Below, one piece after another: positions 6,901-50,913 of a stretch of 62,953 nucleotides of DNA; positions within the stretch are counted from its first letter, which is position 1; every line of letters starts with the position of its first letter. This stretch comes from Armatimonadia bacterium (GTDB taxonomy: Bacteria; Armatimonadota; Zipacnadia; Zipacnadales; UBA11051): NCBI GenBank assembly GCA_039683575.1, contig JBDKRC010000044.1, positions 1 through 62,953 on the forward strand. Reading direction: 5' to 3'. Below the pieces are notes generated by a model that ran no database searches, was not told where the DNA came from, and saw only the letters and a list, made by a program, of their open reading frames with translations. The translations under genes and the position numbers were made by a program.

Positions 6901-8353
6901 TCTCCCGAAGCTGCGCCGGGTTGGTCACCAGCGGCGGGAACACCTGCTCATGCTGGTCCCCGAACTCCACCTGCAGCCCCCGCACAGTAGTCAGCTTCCG
7001 CATCTCCGCATTCGCCGCCTGGTAGAACGGGTGGTCCTCCAAGAACTTCGGATAGTACTGCAGCCAGCCCTTCGGGTCTGCCAGGAAGGGGTAGAAGTAC
7101 CCTCCCGGCATGGCCATATAGTTGGGAGCCCCCTCCCCGTTCAGTCCGTCCTGATAGGTGTGGTTATACATCGCCACTTCCTGCGCCGGCCCCGCGAAAT
7201 CCACCAGCACCGGGTCCTCCGCCAGTATCCCCAGCAGCCACATATCCACATAGTTCGCTTCCTGGTAGTTTGTGAGCAGCTTCTGAGAGAACACTCCCTC
7301 AAACATCAGGGCCAGCTCCCGCATCAGCTTGTAGGTGATCTTCTTATCCAGCGCCTCCGGGTCCCCGTACTTGATCTTCGAGTAAGCCTTGAACGTCGGA
7401 TGGTGCCGCACCCGCCCAAACGGCTCCACCCAGATGTGCTCATCCATCATGTTGAGCCATCCCGGGCTCGAATGCGGCATCCGCCGCCCCCAGGCACCCA
7501 ACTCCCCCACCTCAAAGATAGCGGGCCGTGGCAGCGCCTCCCACTCCGCCCGCGACAGCCCCTTCCCCTCTTTGCCCATGCACAGGTGATTGTCCCAAGC
7601 CAGCGGCAGCCCGTAGTAGGTGTCCGCTACCTCATCCAGCAGCACCGCCACCTTGTGTACATAAAGCGGGTCCGCCGTCTCCGCAAACTTCTGCGCATAC
7701 TGCCGCACCAGTTCCCCGCCCTCGCTCAGCCACCGCTTGTGGTCAAACAGGGTCTTGATGAATAGCTCCCAGACCACCCCATCCTTGTCCGTATACACCG
7801 TGCACGGGGCCTCATACCAGGTATCATCAAGGTGCAGGAACTTGACCTTCTCCGTAGGCCGCAGCGCATAGCCCTCGGGCATATCCTTCTCGCGCCCCCA
7901 AAGCTCCCTCCGGCAGCAGGTAGTGGTCGCGTGGTACGGATTCTTCGGGTCCGCCGTCATCCCAAACGCCCACGCCCCACAAAGCGGGCAGTAGCTCGTA
8001 AACGCCGCATCCGCTTTGCCCGGCGCCGCCTGCCCCGACCTCACTTGCGCAAAGGGCGTGATATGCCGCGGAAAATCCGCCCGCAACTCCGCATCCGCAG
8101 GCGCGGTGGCGGCGTACTTGGCATAGGCTTCCTCCGCCCCGAGCGCCGGGTGCTCCTTGTTCCACCGCTCCACTTGCTGCCTGGTCCAGTCGGCAAACAG
8201 ATTCTCCCGCGTAAGCTTCGGAATCTTCCGCCCGGGGATCAACTCGGCAACCTTGGCCCCTCTCTCCGGCGCCGACCAGACCGGCCCCACCTCCGCCGCC
8301 TCAGCCACGCCAAAGCCACCCACAACAATCACCGCCAAAAGAGCAGCAATCAT
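3935..8353 (-). CDS. Very large secreted protein with heparinase II/III-like lyase domain and C-terminal NPCBM/NEW2 domain
   Basis: AAGGAGG SD before ATG 8353; signal peptide MIAALLAVIVVGGFGVAEAA; HNAQDALGL and HSPLCQNNLTVD motifs; C-terminal IYLSDL...LRLYTTDAGDGIGSDHAVWGGARL. Confidence 0.7.
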   Translation of the reverse strand: MIAALLAVIVVGGFGVAEAAEVGPVWSAPERGAKVAELIPGRKIPKLTRENLFADWTRQQVERWNKEHPALGAEEAYAKYAATAPADAELRADFPRHITPFAQVRSGQAAPGKADAAFTSYCPLCGAWAFGMTADPKNPYHATTTCCRRELWGREKDMPEGYALRPTEKVKFLHLDDTWYEAPCTVYTDKDGVVWELFIKTLFDHKRWLSEGGELVRQYAQKFAETADPLYVHKVAVLLDEVADTYYGLPLAWDNHLCMGKEGKGLSRAEWEALPRPAIFEVGELGAWGRRMPHSSPGWLNMMDEHIWVEPFGRVRHHPTFKAYSKIKYGDPEALDKKITYKLMRELALMFEGVFSQKLLTNYQEANYVDMWLLGILAEDPVLVDFAGPAQEVAMYNHTYQDGLNGEGAPNYMAMPGGYFYPFLADPKGWLQYYPKFLEDHPFYQAANAEMRKLTTVRGLQVEFGDQHEQVFPPLVTNPAQLRETERVGSRNWAGYGVGIMRIGGPGHRQELGLTYTRASLHNAQDALGLECWVDGIPMLRRGGYAAYWSNARLQWERPEVAALRKMGYPKEIVEAGRPPDNWTWNWCHSPLCQNNLTVDEKGVGAGWDDNRGYGEVVTFKGGEAAGEPGSGFQVLEVVDHYSWSRVDRKMDEFRRTVIGVEGPDGRPYAVDILKAKGEGRQALYNSVFGDAVETELPPAKSKAETLAEVYAKDNPEAAKEDSVEQQSFRQMRKVEVLGAPTGQWGMTWKQDVGQYAPRDANGKPFARPWAGDTGQVRLRMIGMPDKARTELIRGQGPWVGWLHQPLPNGQRADGYVAFRDARDIVVERRLPAEGQKTVDSRYVHILEGYREGEQSVIKSVTPLQATSVKGPEREIVALKLEMAAGHSDVVVYQSDAGVVKLADGVETDARYALVRRDGKGETLESEMCRGTYLKLPGFGVKAAGEFGGTIVDVIGDLTGTRQESALVIRPDRPWPVGTNLKGRQLLVRYESELRDPGNEGWRVEKVTALPGGLVRVDMQDAAPFVVSWHQVTVLPTDRQNVIKTWRPMVDHGNNPWYNGLKLWFPEQNKLYTIKNVNRVGGGYGGDTVGLVEKVNLAAEGIKVGDWYVIYGVQPGLQVQVANDFCFRREGATEWKQYGLRATGPVEVKCKATEAGLWQRSGAGEWKEAGKGQGAFSASDDEAITLVADKPAWLNLNYTTPPQVVRLAMDGQEVDPEKAKDLGWIEAPKRLTVEIREAENPLDVGSLKVGVNGKPAEAGVVTATAAGDGKGLKVEVDLQRALGEERQTRKVAVEVSVADKSVDRQRMVLPVAFMIRVPQDAGAIYLSDLQAVSSFAHGGLILDRDYIGNPAQIADRVYVKCLTLCPEPSPDGVHGEVVYLLPPDKPGLTLYSDVGISTSASGNGSAAFKVQVGGEAKGPWQTLYTSPTLRGGEEPVTVKVELGRAKYLRLYTTDAGDGIGSDHAVWGGARLK

Positions 8354-8465
8354 CTCAAGCCTCCTTAACTTCCGTACCCCCAACCCGGCCGCCTGTAGGA
8401 GCGCTCACCAAAGCGCGATCATCCACGCCGACCTTCCGCCAACGCCGCTCAACCCCGTCCAACCG

Positions 8466-8544
8466 TGTCATCCTGAGAAGCGTCGTTTGCGACGAAGGAT
8501 CTCCTCCCGCCCCCCCGAGATTCTTCGCTTCGCTCAGAATGACA
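8466..8544. repeat. REP-like inverted doublet, GTCAT family (TGTCATTCTGAG...GAAGAATC), representative copy
   Basis: TGTCATCCTGAG...CTCAGAATGACA. Further copies near 50990, 51119-51208, 52830, 54366-54473, 58919-59001, 59096-59179, 61425-61651 and 62688-62780. Confidence 0.85.
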
Positions 8545-8556
8545 AGGCTCAATGTG

Positions 8557-8613
8557 CCCGCCGTTGTTCCCGCCGTTCCCGCCGTACCTGTTCCCGCCTC
8601 ACCCGTTCCCGCC
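8557..8613 (-). repeat. Short degenerate tandem repeat (GGCGGGAACGG units on the minus strand)
   Basis: CCGTTCCCGCC-like units; the same motif occurs on the + strand at about 49625-49672, 56808-56870, 58851 and 59027. Confidence 0.7.
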
Positions 8614-8620
8614 CTCCATC

Positions 8621-8664
8621 TTTTACACCCCCGTCACTCAAGTCACAGTCCCTCCTGCCGATAA
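8621..8664 (+). promoter_or_regulatory. Sigma28 (FliA/SigD)-type promoter upstream of rpoN
   Basis: TCAA(8638-41)-N15-GCCGATAA(8657-64), preceded by TTTTACA at 8621. Confidence 0.75.
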
Positions 8665-8713
8665 CCCTTTCGGCCCAATCTTCGCTCCATACCGCCGCGT
8701 CCCGGGGGACCTC

Positions 8714-10021
8714 ATGGTTGCGCTCAGCACCCAGCTTCTTACTCAGCCGCGTCTGCAGCAATCCGTCTCGCCGCAGGTCATCCTGCAAAGCCACATACTC
8801 GAACTGGCCGCCGACGACCTGCGCGAGCGCGTGGCTGCTGAATTACAGGACAACCCTGCGCTCGAATTGGCCGACGATGTCTATTTCCTTCCCGCTCCAG
8901 TCGCCCCTCCGGCCCTGCCGTATGACTCCGTGGAGGCGCTCGAACGCCTCTGCGCTCCCTATACTCTCGCCGATGACCTCCGTCTTCAGCTAACCCACGT
9001 TCCCGAGCAGCACCGCTCTCTTTGCGAATACCTCATCGAATGCCTCGACGACCGTGGCTTCCTCGACGCCGACTTGCGCGACGTCGCCGCCCACTTCGAC
9101 ACCACGACGGGGCAAGCCGAAGCCGCTCTCGCTCATCTGCAGGCCCTCGAACCCGCCGGCATAGGTGCCCGCAACCTTCGCGAATGCCTCCTGCTCCAGC
9201 TAGACCGCTTCAACGCCGCCCAAGTCCCGCCCCACACCCGCGACTTCATCTCCGCCTATCTCAACACCGACCGCCAGGGCTCGCCCAGCCAGACCGCTGG
9301 CGCGCTCGGGCTCGCAGACAACGATTTCGCCGCGATCATCAAGTTCATAGCCTCCCGCCTGCACATGTGGCCTGCGGACAAGTTCCACGACGACCAGCAC
9401 TCCCTGAACGAGCCCGCCCACGCCCTCTTCCCGGACGCCCGTATCACCCTCGACGGCGAGCAACTCAGCGTCCAGGTCTCTCAATCCTGGTCCCGCGCTC
9501 TCCGCGTCAGCGAGGCCTATTCCCGCCTCGAACGCGACCTCACCGCCCGCCCCACGGGGCAGGAGGGACAGAGCCTCACCGAGCGCATTCAAGAGGCCCG
9601 TACCTTCATCCACCAGCTAACCCGCCGGGAGACCATGCTCAAGCAGGTTACCGAGGCCATCGCCGCCCACCAGTACGACTTCTTCTTCGACGGCGCCCAG
9701 GCCCTCCAGCCCCTCACCCGCAAGGAGATAGCCACTCGGGTGGGCGTCCACGAGTCCACAATCAGCCGCGTAACCGCCGGCAAGTACGTGCAACTCCCCA
9801 ACGAGCAACTCGTCCCCTTCGACTACTTCTTCGACAACTCCCTCTCTGCCAAGGCCATCCTCCGCTCCCTTATAGAGCGTGAAGACCCCCGCCGCCCCCT
9901 TTCCGACGGCGCCCTGGCCACCCGCTTGCAGTCCGCGGGCTACCCCCTCGCCCGCCGCACGGTAGCCAAATACCGCGACGCCCTGGACCTCCCGCCCGCC
10001 CACCAACGCAAACGCGCCTAG
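8714..10021 (+). CDS. rpoN: RNA polymerase sigma-54 factor
   Basis: Region I QPRLQQSVSPQVILQSHILEL...ELQDNPALE; LEPAGIGARNLRECLLLQL; HESTISRVT; RpoN box ARRTVAKYR. The track's extension from 8552 is repeat-derived. Confidence 0.95.
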   Translation: MVALSTQLLTQPRLQQSVSPQVILQSHILELAADDLRERVAAELQDNPALELADDVYFLPAPVAPPALPYDSVEALERLCAPYTLADDLRLQLTHVPEQHRSLCEYLIECLDDRGFLDADLRDVAAHFDTTTGQAEAALAHLQALEPAGIGARNLRECLLLQLDRFNAAQVPPHTRDFISAYLNTDRQGSPSQTAGALGLADNDFAAIIKFIASRLHMWPADKFHDDQHSLNEPAHALFPDARITLDGEQLSVQVSQSWSRALRVSEAYSRLERDLTARPTGQEGQSLTERIQEARTFIHQLTRRETMLKQVTEAIAAHQYDFFFDGAQALQPLTRKEIATRVGVHESTISRVTAGKYVQLPNEQLVPFDYFFDNSLSAKAILRSLIEREDPRRPLSDGALATRLQSAGYPLARRTVAKYRDALDLPPAHQRKRA

Positions 10022-10040
10022 TGCCGCCGCCCCGTCCGCT

Positions 10041-10150
10041 GTAGGTTCGGGGGCTAGTGCCCGCTGTAGGGCGGGGGCTCGTACCCCGCCGGCCGTCATC
10101 CCCGACCAACTCTCATTCCGCGGGTAGGAGCGCTCCCCCGAGCGCGACCA
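10041..10150. repeat. Cluster of GTAG-type REP palindromes
   Basis: GTAGGGCGGGGGCTCGTACCCCGCC and GTAGGAGCGCTCCCCCGAGCGCG. Relatives at 8395, 26697, 29101, 36746-36833, 46307-46374, 52871, 55097-55150 and 56901. Confidence 0.8.
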
Positions 10151-10221
10151 TCAACGACCTCCCCTCGCCCCGTTCCCCCTACGACCGTTTTCCGTTTCCG
10201 TTTCGCCTCTCCCTCTCCCCC

Positions 10222-10237
10222 TGGCACGCATCTTGCA
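10222..10237 (+). promoter_or_regulatory. Sigma54 (-24/-12) promoter of flgB
   Basis: TGGCACGCATCTTGCA matches the consensus TGGCACG-N4-TTGCW exactly. Confidence 0.85.
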
Positions 10238-10250
10238 TCTGTCCTCCCCG

Positions 10251-10640
10251 ATGTCATCCTACCTCACCGACAACACCGTCTCCGCACTCTCCAAGGCCCT
10301 CCAGGGCCAGGCCCTGCGCCAGCGCACGGTCGCCAATAACCTCGCCAACGTAGACACGCCCGGCTACCGGCCCCAGCGCGTGGACTTCGAGGCCCAGCTT
10401 CGCCACGCCCTCGCCTCCGCCGATGGCGACAATCCCGCCTCCTCCGCCGTCATTGATGCCATCCGCCCGCAAGCCTCCACCTCGTCCTCGCCCGCCCTGC
10501 GCCGCGATGGCAATGCCGTGGACCTTGAGACCGAGATGGTAGAACTCGCCGAGAGCAGCACACATTACAACGCCCTCATCCGCCTGCTCTCAAAGAAGCT
10601 GCAAATGCTCAAATCAGTAGCCACCGAAGGTGGCAAGTAA
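10251..10640 (+). CDS. flgB: Flagellar basal-body rod protein FlgB
   Basis: RQRTVANNLANVDTPGYRP; RRDGNAVDLETEM. Confidence 0.95.
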   Translation: MSSYLTDNTVSALSKALQGQALRQRTVANNLANVDTPGYRPQRVDFEAQLRHALASADGDNPASSAVIDAIRPQASTSSSPALRRDGNAVDLETEMVELAESSTHYNALIRLLSKKLQMLKSVATEGGK

Positions 10641-10641
10641 C

Positions 10642-10742
10642 GCGTAGGCAGGTTCATCCTTGAACCTGCAAATGACCGCGTGTAGGCAGGTTCATCGCGA
10701 ACCTGCAATGACCGCGTAGGCGGGTTCGTCTCGAACCCGCAA
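10642..10742. repeat. Three tandem GTAG-type hairpin repeats between flgB and flgC
   Basis: GTAGGC(A/G)GGTTC-loop-GAACC(T/C)GCAA x3. Two related copies at 37977-38050. Confidence 0.85.
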
Positions 10743-10760
10743 CCAATGGAGCCCTTCACC

Positions 10761-11150
10761 ATGAGCCTCTTCTCCGGCCTCAAAATCAGCGCCAGCGCCC
10801 TCTCGGTCGAGCGCCTTCGCATGAACGTCATCGCCGAGAACATCGCCAACGCCGAAACCACCCGTACGCCCGAGGGCGGACCCTACCGCCGCCGCGAGGT
10901 CCAGATCGCCTCTTCCGGCGAAGCGCCTGGCGTCTATGCCTCGGTCGCATCCGACCCGCGCCCCGATCGCCTCATGTACGATCCCTCCCACCCCGAGGCC
11001 AACGCCGAGGGCTATGTCCGCATGCCCAACGTGGACCTGCCGGCCGAGATGGTGGACATGATGACCGCCACCCGCGCTTACGAGGCCAACACCGTAGCCT
11101 TCCAAAGCCAGCGCCAGACCCAGGAGCGCACCCTCGAACTACTCGCCTAG
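10761..11150 (+). CDS. flgC: Flagellar basal-body rod protein FlgC
   Basis: RMNVIAENIANAETT...GGPYRRR; YDPSHPEANAEGYVRMPNVD; TRAYEAN. Confidence 0.95.
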   Translation: MSLFSGLKISASALSVERLRMNVIAENIANAETTRTPEGGPYRRREVQIASSGEAPGVYASVASDPRPDRLMYDPSHPEANAEGYVRMPNVDLPAEMVDMMTATRAYEANTVAFQSQRQTQERTLELLA

Positions 11151-11214
11151 CCCTCTCACGCGGTTTCTGATCCTTACTATCCTTCTCATCCTGTGAATGC
11201 CATTTCTGAAAGCC

Positions 11215-11589
11215 ATGCTGATCAACTCCTTCCAACCAGCCCAACTCGTCACCCCCGGAGAACTCCCCTCCGCCTCCCGCCTCCCTGTCTCCTGGCCTGA
11301 GACTGGCTCCACGAGCCTGATCCAGCCCGGAATGCCTGCTGCTCAGCAGCCGCTGGCCGACGGTTCACCACCGGAGTTCTCCCAGGTCCTCGGCAAGGAG
11401 CTTGAGCGGGTCAACGACCTCCTCGGCGAGGCCGACGTGCAGGCCCAGCGCGTCGCCACCGGTGACGCGGAGAACCTCCACGAATCCATGCTGGCCATGG
11501 CCGAGGCCGACCTCGCGCTCCAAGTCACCATGCGCGTCACCCAGAAAGCCATCGCCGTCTACCAGGAAATCAGCCGCATGCAGGTATAG
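11215..11589 (+). CDS. fliE: Flagellar hook-basal body protein FliE
   Basis: C-terminus LHESMLAMAEADLALQ...KAIAVYQEISRMQV; synteny. Confidence 0.9.
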   Translation: MLINSFQPAQLVTPGELPSASRLPVSWPETGSTSLIQPGMPAAQQPLADGSPPEFSQVLGKELERVNDLLGEADVQAQRVATGDAENLHESMLAMAEADLALQVTMRVTQKAIAVYQEISRMQV

Positions 11590-11621
11590 TTCCGCTTAGC
11601 CGGAGGGCCGAATGGGGCCTC

Positions 11622-11655
11622 TCCCCCATCCGGCCCGCCACCTTTTCAACCCTCA
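11622..11655. repeat. GGAGGG(G)CCGA...CCGGCCC palindromic repeat family, representative copy
   Basis: Same outer arms at 46380-46404, 54497-54538, 59203-59227 and 59262-59303, with different inner hairpins. Confidence 0.65.
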
Positions 11656-11728
11656 CGGTCTGCGGGAAAAACGCCCCAAATCGTTACATCGGTTAACTTC
11701 TTCTGTCGCGTTTGACACCTGGAATGAC

Positions 11729-13279
11729 ATGCCACAACCGACTTTTGTGACGCAACTAACCTCCCTGTGGCAGCGCCTCGACCGGCGCGCCCGCCTCGTC
11801 ATCATCGCGGCTGCCGCCCTCTGCGTCGGCGGCCTGATCGCCCTCACCCGCGTTGGCTCTGGGACCACCTACACCACGCTCTACAGCAACCTCTCCGCCG
11901 AAGACGCCGGACAGATCACCGAGAAACTCAAGTCCGAGCGCACCGAATACCGCCTCACCGACGGCGGGGCCACCATCCAGGTCCCGACCGACACGGTATA
12001 CGAACTCCGCCTGTCCCTCGCCAAGGAGGGCCTGCCCACCTCTGGACAGGTTGGCTTCGAGATCTTTGACAAGTCTGGCCTCCCCGGCACCCAGTTCAAC
12101 AACCGCGTCAACTACCAGCGTGCCCTGCAGGGCGAGTTGGCGCGCACTATCGGCTCAATGGGCGAGATCCGCAGCGCCCGCGTCCACCTGGTCTTGCCCG
12201 AGGAAAACCTCTTCTCCGAGAAGACCAAAGCCAGCGCCTCGGTGGTCCTTCAGCCCAAATCGGGGGCTGAGGTCACTGCTGAGATGACTGCTGCCATAGC
12301 CCACATCGTCGCCAGCGCGGTTGAGGAGATCACTCCGGAGCAGGTGACCATCGTTGACGCCGGCGGGCGGGTGCTGCGTGGCCCCGAGGACGGCAAATTC
12401 GGGGGCCTCACTGCCAGCCAGTTCGAGATCCAGCGCCAGTACGAAGACCGCCTGTGCCTCAGCCTCCAGTCCATGCTCGACTCGGTCCTCGGCCCCAATC
12501 AGGCCGTTGTACGGGTCCAGGCACAGCTTGATTTCAACGCTGAGGAAGTCAAAGACGAGAACATCGTGCCTGTGGCCGATGGCAAGGGGCTGGTGACGAC
12601 CGAGAAGGTCAAAGAGGAGCAGTACCAGGGCAGCCAGCGGGGTGGCAGCGGCAGCATGGGCCTGCAGCCAAATGTCGGCGTGGCAGGCGCGGGCAGCGGC
12701 CCAGGCCCGGAGGGCGGGGCCTATGTCCAGCGGGATGAGACCCGCCAGTACGAGTTCTCCCGCCGCACCAGCTCCCTGGTCAAGGCGCCCGGCGCCCTGA
12801 AGAATCTGACTGTCGCGGCGGTCATTGATGAGAACCTCACCCCCTCTGCCGAGGACCAGGTGAAGCAGGTCATCACCGCCGCCGCCGGCCTTGATGTGGA
12901 CCGCGGCGACGTTGTGACCGTCGAGCGCATGAAGATCGAGGCGGCTGAACTGGCCAAGAAGCAGGAGCAGGAGTACACCGCAGTCGAGAAGGGCCGCCGC
13001 CGCGACAGCTTCCTGCACACCGCTCTGCGCAGCAGCCTGGTGCTCGTGGCCGCCGCGCTCATCTTCATGAGCATCATGATCGCGATGAGACAGGTGCGCG
13101 GGATGGACCTTGGCCTGGCGGAGCCAACCACGGAGATTCCGCCCGCCGAGGAGGAGCCCGCCTCTCCCCCGCCAGCCCTCAACGAGCACGCGCGCCAGCA
13201 ACTGCGCCAGATGACCCGTCAGGATGCGGGGGTAGTGGCTGACCGCCTCCGCGCCCTGCTCGAAGGCGAGCGCAACTGA
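11729..13279 (+). CDS. fliF: Flagellar M-ring protein FliF
   Basis: Two TM segments; VGFEIFD; YQRALQGELARTI; ARVHLVLPE; ASASVVL. Confidence 0.95.
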   Translation: MPQPTFVTQLTSLWQRLDRRARLVIIAAAALCVGGLIALTRVGSGTTYTTLYSNLSAEDAGQITEKLKSERTEYRLTDGGATIQVPTDTVYELRLSLAKEGLPTSGQVGFEIFDKSGLPGTQFNNRVNYQRALQGELARTIGSMGEIRSARVHLVLPEENLFSEKTKASASVVLQPKSGAEVTAEMTAAIAHIVASAVEEITPEQVTIVDAGGRVLRGPEDGKFGGLTASQFEIQRQYEDRLCLSLQSMLDSVLGPNQAVVRVQAQLDFNAEEVKDENIVPVADGKGLVTTEKVKEEQYQGSQRGGSGSMGLQPNVGVAGAGSGPGPEGGAYVQRDETRQYEFSRRTSSLVKAPGALKNLTVAAVIDENLTPSAEDQVKQVITAAAGLDVDRGDVVTVERMKIEAAELAKKQEQEYTAVEKGRRRDSFLHTALRSSLVLVAAALIFMSIMIAMRQVRGMDLGLAEPTTEIPPAEEEPASPPPALNEHARQQLRQMTRQDAGVVADRLRALLEGERN

Positions 13280-13304
13280 TGCCGACGGGTGGCCTCACTA
13301 TACT

Positions 13305-13374
13305 GTGGGAGGGGTCTCCAGCCCCCGATGGCGCTACGGTGCAGGCAAGGTCGGGGTCTGGAGACCCCTCCCAC
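13305..13374. repeat. Inverted pair of GTGGGAGGGG-type REP elements
   Basis: GTGGGAGGGGTCTCCAGCCCCCGA and GTCGGGGTCTGGAGACCCCTCCCAC. Relatives at 37398, 50426, 51227, 61668 and 62801. Confidence 0.85.
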
Positions 13375-13439
13375 AAGGGATTCTCATCTTCCGGAAATGA
13401 TCTAGTCCAACTGATTCCCATCTTTGGCAGGGCACCAGC

Positions 13440-14141
13440 ATGACCGCTTCATTCCAGCCCACCTTCGCACCCTCCGCACAGTCCCCGGCCTTCACGCCCC
13501 TCTTCCCAACCTCACCCGAAGCCTTTTCGGCTTCCCTTTGGGAGCCCAAGCCTCCAGCCCCTCCACCCGCCGAGCCCGAGGAAGTGCTCGCCGTGACGGA
13601 AGTCGAAGCGGAGCGGCTACTGGCCGAAGCGCAAGCCCGCGCTGATGAGCTCGTGGCGGCACAGGTGCGGCAGGCGGTTGAAGCGGCGCGGCAGGAGCAA
13701 GTGGAGGCTTTCACTCAGGCGTCTGAGACGCTGCTTGCCTCACTGGAGCGGAACACCAACGCCCGGCTCGATGGAGTCGAGAAACAAATGGCGCTGCTAC
13801 TGAGCCACCTCCTCGAGCGCCTCGTCCATCAGCAGATCGCGGCTGACGATCAGGCCATCGTCTCGCTGGTGCGCGCGGCCTTGCAGCGGCTGACGGAGAG
13901 CGGGCGCGTGCAGGTAGTCATCGCCCCCCAGCACGAACCGGCGCTGCGGCAGGCCTATGACGACTTGGCGGCAGTTCTGCGCGAGGACACCCGCCTTGAG
14001 ATAGTGGTCGCCGATACCGCTGAAGCGGCAGGCTGTGTCGTGCATGGAGACCGGGAGAGCATAGACGCGCGGCTCTCGACCCGTCTCGAAGCCATTGGTC
14101 AGACGATTCAGCAGACCGTGCTGGGTGACGCGGCCGCATGA
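13440..14141 (+). CDS. fliH: Flagellar assembly protein FliH
   Basis: Ala/Glu-rich coiled coil; C-terminal [26 protein letters not shown] overlap with fliI. Confidence 0.85.
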
Positions 14142-15448
14142 CCATCTGCGACCGTCTTCTGCCCGCTCTGGACGACCTTGACCTGCTCCCGCGTATGGGG
14201 CAGGTCACCCGCTCGGTTGGCCTCATCGTGGAGTCCAGCGGCCCGCGTGCCCGCATCGGCGACCTGTGCGAAATCCGCGACGAGGCCCATGCGCCGGTGC
14301 TGGCCGAGGTCGTCGGCTTCCGTGGCGACAACCTCGTCATGATGCCCCTGGGCCGCACCGAGACCATTGCGATGGGCGGCGAGGTGCGCTCTGCGGGGGC
14401 CTTCGATCTCTGGCCAAGCGAGAAGATGCTCGGCCGGGTGCTTGACGGCCTCGGTCAGCCCCTCGACGGCCTGCCTCTCCCCCGTGGTCCGCGCGCTGTG
14501 CCGGTCATAGCCACTCCCCCCTCCCCTCTGAGCCGCCAGCGCATCACCGAGCCCCTGTCGCTTGGCGTCCGGGCCCTCGACGGCCTGTTGACCTGCGGAC
14601 GCGGCCAGCGCCTCGGCATCTTCGCCGGCGCTGGCGTGGGCAAGAGCACCCTCCTGGGCACCATCGCCCGGTCCACCCGCGCCGACATCAATGTCATCGC
14701 CCTCATCGGCGAGCGTGGGCGCGAGGTCCGCGAGTTCATCGAGCGCGACCTCGGCGAGGACGGGCTGAGACGCTCAGTGGTCGTCGCCGTGACCGGAGAC
14801 GAGCCGCCGCTAGTCCGCATCAAGGGCGCGTATGTGGCCACCGCGATAGCCGAGTACTTCCGTGACCAGGGCCAGCATGTGCTGCTGATGATGGACTCGG
14901 TCACTCGCTTTGCGTGGGCCCAGCGCGAAGTCGGCCTCGCCAGCGGCGAACCCCCCACGCGCAATGGCTACACGCCCTCGGTCTTCGCGGCCCTCCCCCG
15001 TCTGCTCGAACGCGCCGGCTGCAGCGACCGCGGCAGCATCACCGGCCTCTACACCGTGCTCGTGGAGGGCGACGACCTCAACGACCCCGCCGCCGACGCC
15101 GCGCGCAGCATCCTCGACGGCCACATAGTCCTCTCGCGCCAGTTGGCCTCGCGTGGCCACTACCCCGCCATAGACGTCCTGCAAAGCGTCAGCAGGCTGA
15201 TGAGCGACATCGCCACGCCGGAGCACCTGCGGGCCGCGCAGAAGCTACGTCAGGCGCTGGCGGACTACCAGGAGGCCGAGGACCTGATCAACCTGGGGGC
15301 TTACGTGGCCGGGAGCAACCCGAAGATAGACGAGGCGATTGCGCTACGCGACGGCATCACGGAGTTCCTGTGCCAGCGGACGGGCGAAGCGAGCGGGTTT
15401 GAGGAGACGGTGGAGGGGTTGAAGGTGGCGGTGGGGCTGTCTGCTTGA
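14138..15448 (+). CDS. fliI: Flagellar export ATPase FliI
   Basis: Walker [18 protein letters not shown]; Walker [19 protein letters not shown]. Confidence 0.95.
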
Positions 15449-25726: not shown

Positions 25727-26671
25727 CTACTTCATGACCCCGAACAGGTTCTTCATGGACAAGAGACCCGGTCCCATGATGATAACGAACAGTGCCGGGA
25801 AGATGCAGAAGATGAGCGGGAAGAGCATTTTGGTGCCCAGGACCGCCGCCTGCTCCCGAATCTTCATTGATCGCCGGCTGCGAAGACCATCCGCATGCGT
25901 CCGCAGGGCCTTCGCAACACTCACCCCAAGCTCCTCTGCCTGGTATAGCGCCGCCACCAGTGCCGCAAGCTCCTCGACCTGCGCCCGGTCAGCGAGGTCC
26001 TGCCAGGCGTCGCGCCGCCGTTTGCCCAGCCGGATCTCCAGCAGCGCCCGATCAAACTCTTCCGCCAGCGGCCCCTCCTTGCGCTGAACCACCTCCGCCA
26101 GCGCCCCATCGAGTCCCATCCCCGCCTCGGCGCTTACCACCAGCAGGTCCAGTGTATCAGGCAAGACCTTGCGGATCGCGGTCTGTCGAGCCTTGATTTT
26201 GTTCTGCAGCATGTAATCGGGGACCATGCCGCCCATGAAGAGCAGCACCAGCGGCACCATCATCCGCATCATCGGCTGCGCACCGGCCAGCACCTTCGTG
26301 TAGAAGAACACCGCCAGCGCCACGCCTCCCAGCATGCCAATTCCTCGCAGCAACAGGAAGATCGGCTCCGTCAGCCCCGGCGGGTTCCCGGCTGCGTTGA
26401 GCTGCTTGCGTACGGTCTCAATCATCCCCTGCGGCGCGATCCCCAGCAGCCGTTTGTTGATGGTAGTGACTACTGGCTTGACGGCGCGGTCGTAGAACGG
26501 CAACTGCAACTGGCGGGAAACGGCCGACTGCGATATCTCAGCCACCGGCCGCACGGCTTGCAGCGCCTCCACGCGCTCGGCAATCTTGATTTGCCGGTTG
26601 GAGGTCGTCAGCCCCATGATCAGGGCCGCGATGCACACGAACAGCAGAATGACAACGATGATGATCAGCAT
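25727..26671 (-). CDS. tadC: Tad pilus inner-membrane protein TadC
   Basis: LPDTLDLLVVSAEAGMGLD; TKMLFPLIFCIFPALF. Confidence 0.92.
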   Translation of the reverse strand: MLIIIVVILLFVCIAALIMGLTTSNRQIKIAERVEALQAVRPVAEISQSAVSRQLQLPFYDRAVKPVVTTINKRLLGIAPQGMIETVRKQLNAAGNPPGLTEPIFLLLRGIGMLGGVALAVFFYTKVLAGAQPMMRMMVPLVLLFMGGMVPDYMLQNKIKARQTAIRKVLPDTLDLLVVSAEAGMGLDGALAEVVQRKEGPLAEEFDRALLEIRLGKRRRDAWQDLADRAQVEELAALVAALYQAEELGVSVAKALRTHADGLRSRRSMKIREQAAVLGTKMLFPLIFCIFPALFVIIMGPGLLSMKNLFGVMK

Positions 26672-26727
26672 GGTATACCTGCGGCTAAATGGGCACGTAG
26701 GGGCGCACCGTGGTGCGCCCGAATCAC

Positions 26728-27696
26728 CTAGATGTCGATCTCCAGCATCTTCTTGATGATGATGATACCCAGCAACATCATCCCGCCGGCAATCCCCAGC
26801 AATATGAGCCCCAGCGGCTCCTTGAACAGGGGCGCGACGTAACCTGGGCTGACGATATTGATCAGGAAGGCCATCCCAAAGGGCAGCCCGCCGAGGATCA
26901 CCGCGGACATCCGGCCTTCCGCTGTGGCCGCCGCGATCTCGCCCGCCAGTCGTACCCGCTCCCGGATCATACCCGAGATGTTGTCCATGACTTCGGCGAG
27001 GTTACCGCCAATCGAGAGCTGGGTCTGCACCGCCGACACGATCAGCTCCAGGTCATAGTTCCCGGTGCGGTCCAGAATGTGGTCCAGCGACTTGTCCAGC
27101 GACTGCCCGAGCCGCACCTCGTCAATGGCTCGCTCAAACTCTTCGGTGATCGGCGGGCTCATCTGCGTCACGACCACCTGCAAGCCCCTCAGAAACGAGT
27201 GGCCTGACCGCAGTGACGACGAGAGCAGGTCCAGCGCGTCAGGCAATTGGTTACTGATCCGCCGCTGCCGCTGCCCCTGCTTGGACTTCATATGCATGTA
27301 CGGTGCTGCCGCCCCCACACCAAGCAGCGCAATGGCGAAAAACCAGGCGTGTCCGAGTTGCAGTCCGACGAAGCCGCCGGTAAACGCACAGATCCCGGAG
27401 ATGATCAGGAACTCAGACGGCCGCAGCAGCATTCCAGCGCGCAGCAACTCGGTCTGCAGCACCTTGCCAAAGTCGCTGCGCTGCAAGATACCTGTCAAGA
27501 GCGGCGCCGGATCCGGAACAGATTCCTTCCTGCTCTTCTTGATCGTCGGCTTGAACTGCGGCCTGCCCTCCTTGAGCTCCTGCAGACGCCGCTGCCGGTC
27601 ACCGTGCGCCGACAGCACCGCGGTAAACAGCACCATGATGCCGCCCGACACGCCCAGGAAAGCCAATACAATCATTGCCACAGTTGCGATAGGCAA
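26728..27696 (-). CDS. tadB: Tad pilus inner-membrane protein TadB
   Basis: QLPDALDLLSSSLRSGHSF; GGNLAEV; TAEGRMSA. Confidence 0.92.
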   Translation of the reverse strand: MPIATVAMIVLAFLGVSGGIMVLFTAVLSAHGDRQRRLQELKEGRPQFKPTIKKSRKESVPDPAPLLTGILQRSDFGKVLQTELLRAGMLLRPSEFLIISGICAFTGGFVGLQLGHAWFFAIALLGVGAAAPYMHMKSKQGQRQRRISNQLPDALDLLSSSLRSGHSFLRGLQVVVTQMSPPITEEFERAIDEVRLGQSLDKSLDHILDRTGNYDLELIVSAVQTQLSIGGNLAEVMDNISGMIRERVRLAGEIAAATAEGRMSAVILGGLPFGMAFLINIVSPGYVAPLFKEPLGLILLGIAGGMMLLGIIIIKKMLEIDI

Positions 27697-27738
27697 AGTG
27701 CGACTCCATACTCTCGCGGGTGAACTCTCCCGCCGGGA

Positions 27739-29076
27739 TTACCTGATAGGCTCAAACACTTCCGGACCAAGCTGCAGGCCCTCAGCCTCGAGCTTCTCCA
27801 TGAACAGCGGCCGAATCCCACGCGGCGCATGCTCCCCGACGATCCGCCCGTCCTTGTCAAACCCATGCCGCTTGTACACAAAGATATCCTGCAGCACGAT
27901 CTCGTCCTGCTCCATCCGCTGCACTTCAGTGATGTGCGTGATCCGCCGTGACCCGTCCCGCAGGCGCTCCTGGTGGACGATCAGATCAAGTGCCGACGCG
28001 ATCTGCTCGCGGATCGCGTGCGCGGGCAGCTGCATCCCGCCCATCAGTACCATGGTCTCCAGACGCGACAACGTATCGCGCGGGCTGTTGCTGTGCACCG
28101 TGCCCAGCGAACCGTCGTGACCCGTGTTCATCGCCTGCAGCATGTCCAGGGCCTCTGAGCCGCGGACCTCACCTACCACAATCCGTTCTGGCCTCATGCG
28201 CAGGGAGTTGCGGACGAGCTGCCGGATCGTGATCTCGCCCTTGCCCTCAAGGTTCGACGGGCGGCTCTCGAGCGTAATCACATGCTCCTGCTGCAGCCGC
28301 AACTCAGCCGCATCCTCAATCGTCACAATACGTTCGTCATGCGGAATGAAGCTGGACAGCACATTCAGCGTCGTCGTCTTCCCGCTACCAGTACCGCCAG
28401 AGACAATGATATTCAGCCGGGCGATGACACACGCCTCCAAAAACGTCGTCATCGTCTCGGACATGGTCCCAAAGTTCACCAGGTCGCGCGGCTTGAGTGG
28501 CTCGACCGAGAACTTTCGGATCGTTACGCACGGCCCGTTGATCGAAATCGGCGGGATGATCGCGTTCACACGGGAGCCATCAGGAAGGCGAGCATCGACC
28601 ATAGGCATGGCTTCATCCAGCCGGCGTCCCAACGGCGCGATGATCTTCTCGATGATCCGCATCACGTGCGCGTCATCCACAAAACGCTTGCCAACCCGGT
28701 GCAGCTTCCCCGCGCGCTCCACGTAGATGCTCTCTGGCCCGTTGATCATGACCTCGGAGATGGAGGGGTCATCCAGCAGCGTCTGGATCGGCCCATAGCC
28801 CATGACCTCATTCAATACCTCGGCCTGCACCTGCTCCTTGGTCCGCGCTGATAGAGAAAGGTTCCGCTCCTCTCCCACTAACTGCGTGAGGAACCGGATC
28901 TGCTCGATCAGCTCCTCCTGGCTCATGGTCTGCAGCATTCGGAAGTCGGTCTCGGTCAGCAGCCGCTGATGAACCTGCAGCTTTAGTTCATCGAGTATCT
29001 CGGCCTCGGCGGTGGAGATACCCAGTGCCGCCGCCGTTTCGCGGATCAGTTCTTGTGAAGCTCTACTTAAGGCCAT
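27739..29076 (-). CDS. cpaF: Tad pilus ATPase CpaF/TadA
   Basis: GGTGSGKTT; IEDAAEL; LRMRPERIVVGEVRG; AMNTGHDGS. Confidence 0.95.
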   Translation of the reverse strand: MALSRASQELIRETAAALGISTAEAEILDELKLQVHQRLLTETDFRMLQTMSQEELIEQIRFLTQLVGEERNLSLSARTKEQVQAEVLNEVMGYGPIQTLLDDPSISEVMINGPESIYVERAGKLHRVGKRFVDDAHVMRIIEKIIAPLGRRLDEAMPMVDARLPDGSRVNAIIPPISINGPCVTIRKFSVEPLKPRDLVNFGTMSETMTTFLEACVIARLNIIVSGGTGSGKTTTLNVLSSFIPHDERIVTIEDAAELRLQQEHVITLESRPSNLEGKGEITIRQLVRNSLRMRPERIVVGEVRGSEALDMLQAMNTGHDGSLGTVHSNSPRDTLSRLETMVLMGGMQLPAHAIREQIASALDLIVHQERLRDGSRRITHITEVQRMEQDEIVLQDIFVYKRHGFDKDGRIVGEHAPRGIRPLFMEKLEAEGLQLGPEVFEPIR

Positions 29077-29180
29077 AAGTCCCTCTACTTCGCAATCTTA
29101 GCTGTGGGGCGTAGCGACGTCCGCGTCGCAGGGGGCTTGTACCCCGCCGATCGTCATCTACAACCGCCGGCCGCCCTCTC

Positions 29181-30350
29181 CTACACCGCCACGCCCTCCA
29201 ACAGCCGCGCCATCAACTTCTGGAGCGCCTGTGCTACGGGCGTCCCCGGCGCGGTCAGCACAAACGGCTTGCCTTCGTTGTACGCCCCCATCGCCGTCTG
29301 CGGATCATCCGGCAACTGCGCCGCCACCTGAAACCCCGTTGCCTCCTCCAGATCCCTCACCGTAAACTGGTTGGCCCGCGATACGCGGTTGGCCAGCAGA
29401 TGGATCCGGTCCTTCGGAATGTGCGTCGCCACGATAGCCTCCAGCAGCGCCGTCGTATCCCGCAGCGTCGCCAGGTCAATCGTGTTGCTGACAATCACAA
29501 GCTCGTTGCACCGGGAGAGAATATAGGTGCTGGCTTGCCATAGCACCGGAGGCATGTCGAAGAACACAAAGCGGTACCGCAGCCGCAACAGTCCGAACAG
29601 TTCCGCCAGATGCGGCACATTCACCGACGACTCGAGCTGTGAGTGACCCCGCCCCACCCCGGACAGTACCCGCAGAGTAGACTCGTGTTTGGCCAAATGG
29701 GTTTCCACCAGGTCTGCGTCGAGGGCCCCAAAGTGCAGGAGGTCAGAAATGCTATTCTCCGGGCGCAGGTCAAGGGCCAGAGCCACATCGCCAAACTGCC
29801 CGTAGAAGTCAACCAGTGCCACTTGGTCTGGGAATTTCCGCGCGAAAAGCACCGCGAGGTTCGCCGCAATCGTGGTCTTCCCGACCCCGCCCTTGGCCGA
29901 GGTGATCGCCACCGTCACCGGCACTTTGGTGGGGTTGGTGATGATACCGAATTGGTCGCTCTGCTTGACCTTCCGTAACTCCGCAAGCTGCGTCACAAGC
30001 TGCCCCAGCGCCCCTGGCGGTTGGTCCCGCCGGATGACCGCTCGCGCACCCGACCGCATGCCCTTCTCGATCGCCGCCCCTATCTCCGACTCCGCCAGCA
30101 GGATGCAGATCGAGTCCGGTGCCGCGGCCGTCGACAGCCTGCAGGCCTCGTAGCCGTTTATCCCCGGCAGGTTCTCGTCGATGAACAGCATGTCGGGCTT
30201 GAGTTGTGCCGCCAGTTGCGCGACTTCCAGGCCGTCGCGGGCATAGCCGACGACCTGCACCTGTTGCTCCCCGCTGAGCTGGCTGATCAGCTCATTGCGA
30301 AGCCCCTCGGCAGCGCCCGGATTTACCTCAGAGATCACAACTCTGATCAT
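29181..30350 (-). CDS. cpaE: CpaE/TadZ: receiver domain plus MinD-like ATPase
   Basis: REC domain LFIDENLPGING; SAKGGVGKTT; QFGDV. Confidence 0.88.
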   Translation of the reverse strand: MIRVVISEVNPGAAEGLRNELISQLSGEQQVQVVGYARDGLEVAQLAAQLKPDMLFIDENLPGINGYEACRLSTAAAPDSICILLAESEIGAAIEKGMRSGARAVIRRDQPPGALGQLVTQLAELRKVKQSDQFGIITNPTKVPVTVAITSAKGGVGKTTIAANLAVLFARKFPDQVALVDFYGQFGDVALALDLRPENSISDLLHFGALDADLVETHLAKHESTLRVLSGVGRGHSQLESSVNVPHLAELFGLLRLRYRFVFFDMPPVLWQASTYILSRCNELVIVSNTIDLATLRDTTALLEAIVATHIPKDRIHLLANRVSRANQFTVRDLEEATGFQVAAQLPDDPQTAMGAYNEGKPFVLTAPGTPVAQALQKLMARLLEGVAV

Positions 30351-30447
30351 GCTGGTGGTCTTTTACTGGATTACAAACCCGAAGCTCCTCCACACCGCCA
30401 GGACTACGCCTTCCTCCCCTGCCTCCGCGCTCATCGGTACCTAGCAC

Positions 30448-32379
30448 TTACTTCGATGCCGGTGCCGTCCCGGTCCCTGTCCCCATTGAAGAGCCCCCAA
30501 CAGGCGCTGCCGTGATGCCGGTCATATTCCCGCCCACGGGAGTCGCCTTTCCTCCCGACTTGTCGATGATCTCCGGAGTCACCATGATCACGAGTTCGGT
30601 CTCGTTGTGCTGGAACTGCTTATGCCGGAACAGCTGGCCAATCACCGGCAGGTCCCCGATCAGCGGTATCTTGGAGACTATCTTGGAGTCTTCACTCTGC
30701 AGCAGCCCGCCCAGTATCAATGTGTCGTTGTTCCCGATGGTGACTGTAGTCTTCACTCGCCGGCTCTTCAGCGCTGGCAGTGAGAAGCTGCTGATCGTTA
30801 CCGCGTTCGAAGCATCAAGTGAGCTGACTTCGGACACCACCTTCAAGTTGATCCGCTGGCGATTCTCCAGGATCGTGGGGCTGATGGCCAGGTGGACACC
30901 GTAGTCCTTCCACTCAACCGTCACTTCTGCCACCCCGCCGCCACCGGCTTGCGCTATGGGTATCGGTATCTCGCCACCCACCAGGATCTCCGCCGCGTCA
31001 CCGTCATCTACCATCACATTCGGCTCAGACAGAATCCGGGCCTTGTTTTCCAGCTTGAGCGCCTCAACCTGCGCTCCGAGTGTGAGTACGTTGTTGACGC
31101 CGCCCTCCGCCACTATGAGCCATGGCTGATCCACGAAGCCCACTGCGTCGCCGTCAACCTGGAGTTGGCCCCAGTTTACGCCGAGCTTCTTGGAGTCGCC
31201 CTTGCTTATCTCGAGAACCTTCGCATGGACCACTATCTGCATCTTCTCAGGCAATGCCACCCGCAGCAGGTCTACCACGCGGAACGGTATCGGCGACTTG
31301 GCGATGATTTCACGAACGCGGTTCATCTCATCCGCGTTCTGCACCATCCCCTCGATGATGATCGCCTCATGGTTGAAGGGCCGCAAGGAGAAGCGGTTCC
31401 CGGTTATCTCCTGCAGAGCCGCCATGGCCGCGTTGATGTCCGGTTGCGGCTCCACGACGCGCACCATGTTGATGATCCGAGCCTGCGCCGCAAAGGCCTC
31501 GAGCAGTTTCGACAGGTTCGCCAGTTCCGCCGCGGACGCCACCTCGCCCTCGATCGCCACCGTCTTGCCCTGCACCTGCCAAACGCGGAACTTGTCACCC
31601 ACCGCCCGTGCGATATCCTCCAGCGGCGGCTCGCCCGCCGACTCCTGGTACTCCAGCAGGTCCACGACGTTCACGCCGCGTCCCGTCACCGCCGTCACCA
31701 GCCGCCGCGCCCGGTCCAGCGCCGCCTGATCCCCCACCTGCCCCTGCACGATCAGGGTGTTGTTATTCCATATGGTGTACTGCAGCTTATCACCCAGCAC
31801 CCCTCGCAGCGCGTTCGCAACCGCCATCGCCGCTGTCGTGCTGTCGCCCTGCACCCGGATCAGGTCAACTATCTGCAGGCCTTCCTTGGACGCCACAGCG
31901 ATGATGCTGCGCGCCCGCTCCGCCTCCTCGGCGCTCACGGTACCCTCAATCACCACCGCCATGTCACCCGCCGGCGTGTAGGTGAGCTTGTTGCCAAGCA
32001 CCCGCCGCAGGTTCTCTACCAGCTTGTCAGCCGGAGACGGTGCCACGACAGTCACTTCGATCTGGGACATCCCCGCCTTGTCCCACACGAACACCGTGGT
32101 CTCGCCAGCCTTCTTACCATATAGTGACAGGTCATTGAGCGACGCCACAACCACCTCAACCAGGTCCGGCTCAATCACCTCCACTCGGCGCATGCGGTCG
32201 AAGTGCAGCGTTGTGCTGCGCCCAATGGGAATTGTTACGCTGCGCCCGTTGCGCATGGCAAGGCCGGTATTCACCGCCAGACCGGCCGGCGCGGCGACGG
32301 CCGCGCCCGCGGCAATGGTCAGGCCGATCACCAGCAGACCCACGAGCCTGTGCATACTGCGAATTTGGCTGTTATGCAT
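30448..32379 (-). CDS. cpaC: Tad secretin CpaC/RcpA with repeated BON-like domains
   Basis: Pilus-assembly N domain (GKKAGETTVFVWD); ARILSEPN; GGEIPIP; KIPLIGDLPVIGQLF; TELVIMVTP. Confidence 0.9.
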   Translation of the reverse strand: MHNSQIRSMHRLVGLLVIGLTIAAGAAVAAPAGLAVNTGLAMRNGRSVTIPIGRSTTLHFDRMRRVEVIEPDLVEVVVASLNDLSLYGKKAGETTVFVWDKAGMSQIEVTVVAPSPADKLVENLRRVLGNKLTYTPAGDMAVVIEGTVSAEEAERARSIIAVASKEGLQIVDLIRVQGDSTTAAMAVANALRGVLGDKLQYTIWNNNTLIVQGQVGDQAALDRARRLVTAVTGRGVNVVDLLEYQESAGEPPLEDIARAVGDKFRVWQVQGKTVAIEGEVASAAELANLSKLLEAFAAQARIINMVRVVEPQPDINAAMAALQEITGNRFSLRPFNHEAIIIEGMVQNADEMNRVREIIAKSPIPFRVVDLLRVALPEKMQIVVHAKVLEISKGDSKKLGVNWGQLQVDGDAVGFVDQPWLIVAEGGVNNVLTLGAQVEALKLENKARILSEPNVMVDDGDAAEILVGGEIPIPIAQAGGGGVAEVTVEWKDYGVHLAISPTILENRQRINLKVVSEVSSLDASNAVTISSFSLPALKSRRVKTTVTIGNNDTLILGGLLQSEDSKIVSKIPLIGDLPVIGQLFRHKQFQHNETELVIMVTPEIIDKSGGKATPVGGNMTGITAAPVGGSSMGTGTGTAPASK

Positions 32380-32481
32380 TGGTGCTAAGCTCCCCTCTTC
32401 TCTGGAGCATGGCTGCTTACAGTGTGCCCCCACACTGTGCCACGCCACCTCGCCACAAGCCCTCGCGATGGCGTATCGCTG

Positions 32482-33435: not shown

Positions 33436-33686
33436 TAGATGCCACGCCCCTTTACTGCGATTGGTTGATCGGGAAGACCCTCCGGGCCGCAAAGACGACA
33501 CTGGGCCAAAGTTGAGCCCGTCATTGATCGACCGGCCAAGCTTTGGCTGATGTCATTCCTGCGTCCGAAACCCCGTCAACCTTTGTGTGATGATCCCTCG
33601 AACAGGTGGGCCAGCAACTCCCTCACCGCATCGCCACCCGCTGCCCTCCGTATGTCAGCCCACAACTGACGTACAGCCTGAATTCT

Positions 33687-39991: not shown

Positions 39992-40199
39992 TCGTTACCC
40001 CTGTGAGTACTGCCACGGATGTAGCGGTTTCAGACCTTCTTGCGCCCGAGCATCCACAAATGGTAGTGGAAAACTGAGATAGTGCGTATCAGGAAGATAG
40101 GAAATCAGGAAGTCGGTCTCACCGAATTCCGCCTTCGAAATGTTGCAGGTCCCTCCCCTCCCGACTGTTCTCCGTCTTCCGTCTGCTGTTTTTGCCGTT

Positions 40200-40215
40200 T
40201 GGCCCCATTCTTGCA
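40200..40215 (+). promoter_or_regulatory. Sigma54 (-24/-12) promoter of flhA
   Basis: TGGCCCCATTCTTGCA (TGGC-N7-TTGCA, GG-N10-GC spacing). Confidence 0.65.
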
Positions 40216-40231
40216 GCCTCCCCTTCCACCC

Positions 40232-45392: not shown

Positions 45393-45395
45393 GGC

Positions 45396-50907: not shown

Positions 50908-50913
50908 GGGGAG

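Follow-up and report, generated by a model that had tools for sequence, protein, structure and literature searches.

Conserved sigma-28-type promoters before rpoN and the sole sigma-54 activator gene point to a reversed or looped order of flagellar sigma factors in an order of Armatimonadota

When a bacterium builds its flagellum with two alternative sigma factors, which of the two stands first? In the hierarchies described in part of the review by Tsang and Hoover, RpoN-dependent genes precede FliA-dependent ones (PMC3930126), and in Geobacter, according to one section of the report on that genus, the best RpoN promoter precedes the operon that holds fliA (PMC2725144). The locus analysed here raises the question anew. 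It lies on a contig of 62,953 nt (contig C44, JBDKRC010000044.1; hereafter the window, meaning the whole of that stretch) from the 6.23-Mb genome of an uncultured, soil-type Armatimonadia bacterium (352 contigs, 63.5% G+C, 96% complete; G000), and it carries flagellar genes together with rpoN, the gene of sigma-54, and the gene of a sigma-54 activator (bacterial enhancer-binding protein). A sequence-only reading of this DNA had proposed that sigma-28-type promoters drive both regulatory genes while sigma-54 drives flgB and flhA. Our analysis of this genome and its relatives suggests that, in most of the order to which the organism belongs, sigma-28 and sigma-54 appear to act in the reverse of their usual flagellar succession or to form a loop.

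Gene names in the window derive from Pfam and NCBIfam profile matches. The rpoN gene (8714-10021, + strand; 435 aa, with Pfam Sigma54_AID, CBD and DBD) is preceded by TCAA-N15-GCCGATAA at 8638-8664 (+), the last base of which lies 49 nt 5' of the ATG at 8714. On the opposite strand, the activator gene (59993-61285, -; Pfam Sigma54_activat, 234.6-236.7 bits) is preceded by TCAA-N16-GCCGATAC at 61345-61372 (-). Both sites are exact, as is a third at 44654-44680 (+), which lies 25 nt 5' of flgF and heads the operon of flgF-flgG-flgA-flgH-flgI, a flgJ-like rod-binding gene, flgM and flgN (44706-50907, +). All three agree with what we take to be the sigma-28 consensus, a TAAA or TCAA -35 box and a GCCGATAA -10 box about 15 nt apart. 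Sigma-28 begins transcription 7-10 nt after its -10 box, and transcripts would be expected to start near 8671 for rpoN and near 61338 for the activator gene.

The sites were scored with a two-block matrix built from the rpoN sites of 18 relatives, this genome excluded, giving 28.0 bits at rpoN, 24.2 at the activator gene and 22.3 at flgF. A further site of 22.3 bits lies within the flgJ-like gene (49862-49896, +), 255 nt 5' of flgM, so that the flgM of the window and the second flgM of the genome, on contig C162, both have sigma-28-type sites (22.3 and 17.4 bits). The sequence-only reading had placed the same motif before fliC as well as flgF. It stands before flgF; before fliC no exact TCAA-GCCGATA motif was found, only a weak TCAAG-N14-GCCAATAA variant (55019-55052, +; 17.6 bits), about 180 nt 5' of the fliC ATG (55231).

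Chance was considered as the origin of these motifs and rejected. Against an expectation of 0.08, the window has three copies of TCAA-N14-17-GCCGATA, one each at rpoN, flgF and the activator gene, and none of 100 shuffles gave three; across the genome, TCAA/GCCGATA pairs number four at N15 and eight at N16 (12 together) and two to four at each other spacing. Over the 12.46 million strand-bases of this genome the matrix finds only 23 sites scoring 17 bits or more, and rpoN loci of other lineages, described below, provide a third argument. That the promoter was brought by a dispersed repeat is ruled out, since the repeats lie at 8384-8613 and the 100 nt that hold the rpoN promoter (8614-8713) match nothing in the genome but themselves.

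The repeats are themselves a feature of the locus. These REP-like (repetitive extragenic palindrome-like) elements (for example ...GATTCTTCGCTTCGCTCAGAATGACA...) are present in 38-80 genome copies; in the window they are found at 8384-8613, 50900-51200 and 61420-61560, where they occupy the intergenic DNA 5' of rpoN, flgK and the activator gene and end short of the promoters.

Comparison with relatives also argues against chance. Of 41 related genomes, 28 have an RpoN orthologue and three others gave only weak matches; 26 loci with a placeable N-terminus (L013-L038) were scanned upstream, L039 and L040 being dropped as partial. The pattern T[ACT]AA-N13-18-[GC]CCGA[TA]A lies within 260 nt 5' of rpoN in 21 of the 26, in six families whose RpoN proteins are 34-59% identical, and the spacers between the boxes differ completely among relatives. 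By matrix, 22 of the 26 reach at least 17 bits in the 600 nt 5' of rpoN, a count that is circular for the 18 training sites; three more score 12-13 bits and one has nothing. When the 150 nt before rpoN were aligned among the four nearest relatives, the two boxes and the ribosome-binding site were the sole conserved blocks. Among the matches listed for other lineages (Chloroflexota, Pseudomonadota, other Armatimonadota and more), by contrast, only one of 80 rpoN loci had a site of at least 17 bits, and two others reached about 12 bits. The single positive is a locus of a Thiobacillus sp. metagenome-assembled genome (L356, JADFDC010000002.1), with 24.1 bits about 24 nt before the rpoN match. A scan of the coding strand with the Escherichia coli consensus, which may miss the housekeeping promoters of this phylum, detected nothing resembling a sigma-70 -35/-10 pair ahead of either rpoN or the activator gene. 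Read-through into rpoN is not expected either, as the gene 5' of it is divergent.

The other genes at which FliA would be expected to act were scored in the relatives with the same rpoN-derived matrix. Activator orthologues (L133-L158; L159-L162 were dropped as partial or paralogous) are preceded by a site scoring 17 bits or more at 16 of 26 loci. In 12 of 22 genomes at least one flagellin gene has a site that reaches 17 bits, and with the limit lowered to 15 bits the number is 14 of 22; canonical GCCGATA sites lie 115-220 nt 5' of flagellin genes in other relatives, while G003 and G004 have the same GCCAATA variant as the present genome at the same place. For flgF, nine of 20 testable relatives have a site of at least 15 bits, and in one relative a sigma-54 box stands before flgF in place of the sigma-28 site. 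A motif found before rpoN, the activator gene, flagellin, flgF and flgM marks the set of targets expected of FliA, and it is best read as a FliA promoter. The identification of the sites as sigma-28-type promoters thus agrees with their order-wide conservation and with the company they keep, and those before rpoN and the activator gene are, judged by these patterns, very probably real FliA-type promoters.

One related family (G020, G025, G030, G035 and G039; loci L142, L147, L149 and L150) departs from this picture: fliA is duplicated there, and the duplicate directly adjoins the activator gene. At the rpoN promoters of this family the -10 box is shifted, reading GCCGAAGTA or GCCGAAATA roughly 41-45 nt 5' of the start, which may reflect an altered specificity of the duplicate FliA. 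In a tree of FliA (34 rows plus outgroup, second copies without a fetched locus being left out) the extra FliA is a lineage-specific duplicate. Its position beside the activator gene could represent a second form of linkage between sigma-28 and the activator.

What, then, would sigma-54 do in this organism? The whole genome gives a single Sigma54_DBD match, so that rpoN is single-copy, and a single strong Sigma54_activat (PF00158) match. Three weaker PF00158 matches (24.6-31.4 bits) were rejected as further activators, two being ClpB/ClpA-type chaperones and one a chelatase-like ATPase. The activator has a degenerate receiver-like N-terminus followed by an AAA+ domain with a GAFTSA loop and, like FlgR of Helicobacter pylori, is without a DNA-binding domain after the AAA+ lid. 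Its N-terminus scores only 13.3 bits against Response_reg and, inspected by eye, has neither a phospho-acceptor aspartate (LLLHCQSFP) nor the conserved lysine; the activity of the protein may be set mainly by its own level or by a partner protein.

Sigma-54 boxes were sought as TGGCAC-N5-TTGCA in a GG-N10-GC frame close to a gene start; a looser genome-wide pattern gave 111 matches, mostly intragenic, and was not used for counts. The boxes predicted before flgB and flhA are both there and are kept in relatives. The first, TGGCACGCATCTTGCA at 10222-10237 (+), matches at 11 of 11 positions and lies 13 nt 5' of flgB, the first gene of flgB-flgC-fliE-fliF-fliH-fliI (10251-15448, +; Pfam), which encode the proximal rod, MS ring and export ATPase. 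Of 28 loci scanned, 13 have such a box ahead of a flgB-like gene that neighbours rpoN; a tblastn search with FlgB had missed the flgB genes beside rpoN in the relatives, and it was the box scan that located them. The second, TGGCCCCATTCTTGCA at 40200-40215 (+), matches at ten of 11 positions and lies within the longest open reading frame (ORF) of flhA (40082-42289, +; Pfam FHIPEP, 838 bits), whose domain begins at ORF residue 71 and whose alignment with FlhA2, a second FlhA described below, begins at 40274; the true start of flhA is probably just 3' of the box. At this place a box matching at least ten of 11 positions is found in all seven relatives of the same family and in none of 11 from other families. 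A third box, perfect at 11 of 11, lies on another contig (C239:24062-24077), between flgE and motA-motB-fliL-fliPQR-flhB. Stators are as a rule encoded by late genes of the sigma-28 class; here motAB look sigma-54-dependent. With a single rpoN, a single activator and boxes before flgB, flhA and motA, sigma-54 in this organism looks dedicated to early flagellar operons.

In two relatives (G040, locus L025, and G018, locus L029) rpoN itself has a sigma-54 box, 11-46 nt 5' of the gene and 3' of the sigma-28 site, which suggests sigma-54 autoregulation there. At five loci (L014, L021, L022, L024 and L032) a CheX/CheC-like gene (MQ.QFIEPF...) near rpoN has a sigma-54 box of its own.

If sigma-28 is to stand above sigma-54, its own source becomes the next question. 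Only one FliA in the genome passes the TIGR02479 cut-off of 189.6 bits (249.7-250.1 bits; C137:60834-61532). The next-best sigma factor, the only other of group 3, is of the SigB/F type, with RsbW and RsbV adjoining, and among the next FliA matches is a 726-aa open frame that we take, as a guess, to be the primary sigma factor. The fliA gene lies outside the flagellar blocks of the window, 59 nt 3' of flhA2, where it closes a second, minimal type III export cluster (C137:60834-74482; loci L124 and L132). The order of that cluster is a HisKA kinase, a receiver, an HD-GYP protein, a short SctJ/FliF-like protein, an ATPase, FliN, FliO, FliP, FliR, a 240-aa FlhB, FlhA2 and FliA; genes for rod, hook or filament were not seen there. 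From the ATPase to fliA this core is conserved among relatives, including G002, G006 and G013, in which no flagellar gene was found; most relatives without any of the flagellar genes searched for have also retained FlgM.

FliA and FlgM form a textbook pair, and flgM is present here as claimed (50151-50501, +; Pfam FlgM, 39.6 bits), in two copies, one in the window and one on contig C162. FlgM of the C162 type occurs in 31 of the 41 genomes, five non-flagellate ones among them, and the second export cluster is an obvious candidate exporter of one FlgM. Within the same family, no sigma-28 or sigma-54 site was found within 500 nt of fliA. At the head of the export cluster there is a sigma-28-type site, of 16.9 bits here and 21.5 bits in G002, and a perfect TGGCAC-N5-TTGCA lies inside flhB2, 5' of flhA2-fliA, in G000, G004 and G001, all of which bear rpoN. 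This box occupies codons L-A-R/Q-D/G-L-Q; in G002, which has no rpoN, the sequence reads CTGGCGCAGGATCTGCAG, and synonymous changes break the box. That the box feeds flhA2-fliA is only suggested by a comparison of four genomes, in which these three are the rpoN-bearing genomes of the two nearest genera with sequence available. Farther afield, G034 and G038, of one related family, and G016 have a perfect sigma-54 box at 193-329 nt 5' of fliA.

The distribution of the genes bears on the same question. Among the 41 genomes fliA is present in 35, rpoN in 28, the activator gene in 29 and any of FliF, FliC or FlgG in 24; of these 24 flagellate genomes, 23 have rpoN, 22 the activator gene and 23 fliA. 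The two sigma factor genes are nested: eight genomes have fliA without rpoN, and one (G022, 89% complete) has rpoN without fliA. In those eight, expression of fliA cannot depend on sigma-54. Such nesting is as expected if sigma-28 were the upstream or independent factor, a reading that the gene counts support. Five genomes (G016, G023, G032, G033 and G040) have rpoN, the activator gene and fliA, with no FliF, FliC or FlgG found with the queries used; four of them (G033, G016, G040 and G032) keep the sigma-28 site before rpoN. In these five relatives the link between the two sigma factors may serve something non-flagellar.

From these observations, namely the motifs, their order-wide conservation, the gene content and its distribution, we infer which sigma factor reads the sites, that rpoN depends on sigma-28, and that a loop may exist. 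RNA polymerase carrying the single FliA would read the sites at 8638-8664 and 61345-61372 and so transcribe both rpoN and the sole sigma-54 activator gene. Sigma-54, with an activator that has no DNA-binding domain, would then fire flgB-flgC-fliE-fliF-fliH-fliI, flhA and probably motAB, and sigma-28 would read the late genes (flagellin and flgM) and, in addition, the distal rod and ring operon. If sigma-28 transcribes both rpoN and the activator gene, it stands above sigma-54 in a feed-forward design. The weak sigma-28 site at the head of the export cluster and the sigma-54 box in flhB2 further indicate that the two factors may reinforce each other, which makes a positive loop plausible. The placement of sigma-28 above sigma-54 in a positive loop, proposed by the sequence-only reading, thus gains from the conserved sites, the nested distribution and the flhB2 box, while the requirement of rpoN for sigma-28 remains the inferred part of it.

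We judge it moderately probable that the sites before rpoN and the activator gene are genuine FliA promoters that place sigma-28 above sigma-54, possibly in a loop, and a number of observations weigh against this. The proposed need of rpoN for sigma-28 is read from sequence, and among the runs listed as matching window positions 8300-10700 no RNA run contains this DNA, the listed runs sharing 0.05 or less of its sequence words. The relatives are kin, so that the counts overstate independence and those of gene distribution are descriptive only; even so the rpoN motif is missing by pattern in five of the 26 loci (L018, L027, L030, L031 and L038), the activator site is missed in ten of 26 (four of these belonging to the family with a second fliA adjoining the activator gene), and eight of 22 genomes fall below 15 bits before their flagellin genes. 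The fliC site of the present genome is weak, as noted (GCCAATAA), and several of its strongest sigma-28-type sites precede no recognisable gene. The sigma-70 scan rests on the E. coli consensus and could have missed the housekeeping promoters of this phylum. With two FlgM copies in the genome, sigma-28 would have to escape FlgM before a hook-basal body exists. The sigma-54 boxes before fliA in G034, G038 and G016 and before rpoN in G040 and G018 mean that the wiring there may be a loop rather than a strict inversion, and the five rpoN-bearing relatives without detected flagellar genes indicate that sigma-54 is not purely flagellar across the order.

Several of these points would also suit an arrangement in which the sigma-28 promoters are real and serve as auxiliary feedback, rpoN and the activator gene being started from unrecognised housekeeping promoters and boosted or maintained late by sigma-28; the cascade would then still begin without sigma-28. 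In Bacillus subtilis, as set out in part of one study, the sigmaD-dependent promoter PD3(fla/che) does not suffice for motility, the main promoter depending on sigmaA (PMC3874003). The housekeeping promoters of the phylum are uncharacterised, which makes negative sigma-70 scans weak; FlgM would make a start from sigma-28 awkward; and the sigma-54 boxes that some relatives have 5' of fliA or rpoN fit reinforcement of a loop type. Set against this are the alignment of the four nearest relatives, in which conservation over the 150 nt 5' of rpoN is confined to the sigma-28 boxes and the ribosome-binding site, the order-wide retention of the site at both rpoN and the activator gene, and the occurrence of fliA without rpoN in eight genomes when the reverse almost never occurs. 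We regard auxiliary feedback as a possibility to be taken seriously, although not a likely one. It is very improbable that the motif is read by another sigma factor or a DNA-binding regulator, or is no promoter at all, its likeness to the FliA consensus being coincidental. The link between FliA and the sites is drawn from the DNA sequence, several top-scoring sites precede no recognisable flagellar gene, and the motif persists before rpoN in the four relatives without detectable flagellar structural genes; but those four all still carry fliA, two boxes 15-16 nt apart fit what we take to be the consensus, TAAA-N15-GCCGATAA, the same motif precedes flagellin and flgM genes, and the only other group-3 sigma factor is of the SigB/F type with its own partner-switching genes.

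The sequence-only reading had also allowed for a master regulator of these promoters in the form of a second, FlgM-insensitive sigma-28 paralogue. Some colour is lent to this by the family that has two FliA genes, one beside the activator gene, and GCCGAAGTA as the -10 box of rpoN. Counting FliA paralogues gave one above the cut-off in this 96% complete genome, the next-best match being the SigB/F-type factor, and duplicates only in that one related family, where the tree makes the extra copy lineage-specific; we give the idea almost no credence. A further proposal takes the sigma-28-first order as its base and extends it. FliA would be both made from and gated by the hook-less minimal export apparatus (SctJ-like ring, ATPase, FliN/O/P/R, short FlhB and FlhA2), which would export its own FlgM; the freed sigma-28 would turn on rpoN and the activator gene, and sigma-54 would re-fire flhA2-fliA, yielding a bistable motility switch. 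Because non-flagellate relatives keep the module, FliA, FlgM and the export apparatus would on this proposal be older than the flagellum and independent of it. We offer this extended scheme as speculation, and as a whole it is unlikely.

How does the arrangement compare with systems already described? As in Vibrio cholerae, Pseudomonas aeruginosa, Campylobacter jejuni, H. pylori and Geobacter sulfurreducens, so far as the cited sources treat them in the parts concerned, sigma-54 with an AAA+ activator serves the basal body, sigma-28 serves flagellin and FlgM is the anti-sigma factor (PMC3930126, PMC2725144). In those systems, according to the same parts, the activator gene and rpoN are read by the housekeeping sigma factor or a master regulator and fliA lies below sigma-54; here both genes have sigma-28 promoters. 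Here, too, the distal rod and ring genes have sigma-28-type sites, motAB have a sigma-54 box and relatives lacking rpoN still have fliA, each unlike the RpoN-then-FliA systems. Of the features that define the canonical hierarchy, sigma-28-type flagellin sites and FlgM are present, while the activator gene and rpoN, which would there be independent of sigma-28, appear tied to it. Salmonella and E. coli have dual promoters of classes 2 and 3 (fliA, flgM, flgK and fliD), by which sigma-28 re-reads genes of an earlier tier, its own included; unlike the present case, FlhDC and not sigma-28 tops that hierarchy, and sigma-54 has no part in it. The closest logic is that of B. subtilis, in which, as presented in part of that work, sigmaD transcribes swrA, SwrA activates the fla/che operon that holds sigD, and the sigmaD-dependent PD3 feeds the operon too (PMC3874003). 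In both organisms a sigma-28-family factor would stand before an activator of early operons in a positive loop; unlike B. subtilis, whose early operon in that account (PMC3874003) has a main sigmaA promoter and involves no sigma-54, the intermediate here would be a whole second sigma factor with its activator, and the scan with the E. coli consensus found no housekeeping promoter.

The sequence-only reading had held that no flagellar hierarchy wired in this way was known. In the literature searched, supplements not being covered, no report of a FliA-dependent (sigma-28-driven) rpoN was found, and nothing relevant on flagellar regulation in Armatimonadetes. The principle that sigma-28 drives an activator of early genes is established in B. 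subtilis; what would be new is the presence of sigma-28 promoters on rpoN and on the sole activator gene.

Some features of the genome lie outside this argument. Five of its nine top sigma-28-type sites (22.0-28.7 bits) precede no recognisable flagellar gene (C213:7658-7692, C298:8136-8170, C298:1967-2002, C21:31631-31665 and C120:9534-9567, all +); one stands before a 67-aa membrane-like ORF, and others run antisense or fall where genes are sparse. Small genes, small RNAs or a section of the regulon unrelated to flagella may lie behind them. The window also holds flgK-flgL, fliC (55231-56742, +), fliD and fliS (Pfam/NCBIfam), and its two flagellar blocks are separated by a Tad/Flp-type pilus cluster (25727-33501, -) of TadB/C-like proteins, a CpaF-like ATPase, a ParA/CpaE-like protein with a receiver, a secretin and RcpC/CpaB. 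The best named matches of the flagellar ATPase of the window are mostly from Bacillota, among many phyla, at 54-65% identity.

In the hierarchies treated in part of the review by Tsang and Hoover, sigma-54 comes before sigma-28 (PMC3930126), and the FlgM checkpoint presupposes this succession. If the arrangement proposed here is true, the order of the two sigma tiers is evolvable, and a puzzle follows as to how sigma-28 is freed from FlgM before there is any hook-basal body. The locus would then offer a natural positive loop of two sigma factors for the study of bistable motility. The second export cluster, FliA and FlgM, kept together by non-flagellate relatives, point to a possible sigma-28 regulatory device that is independent of the flagellum.

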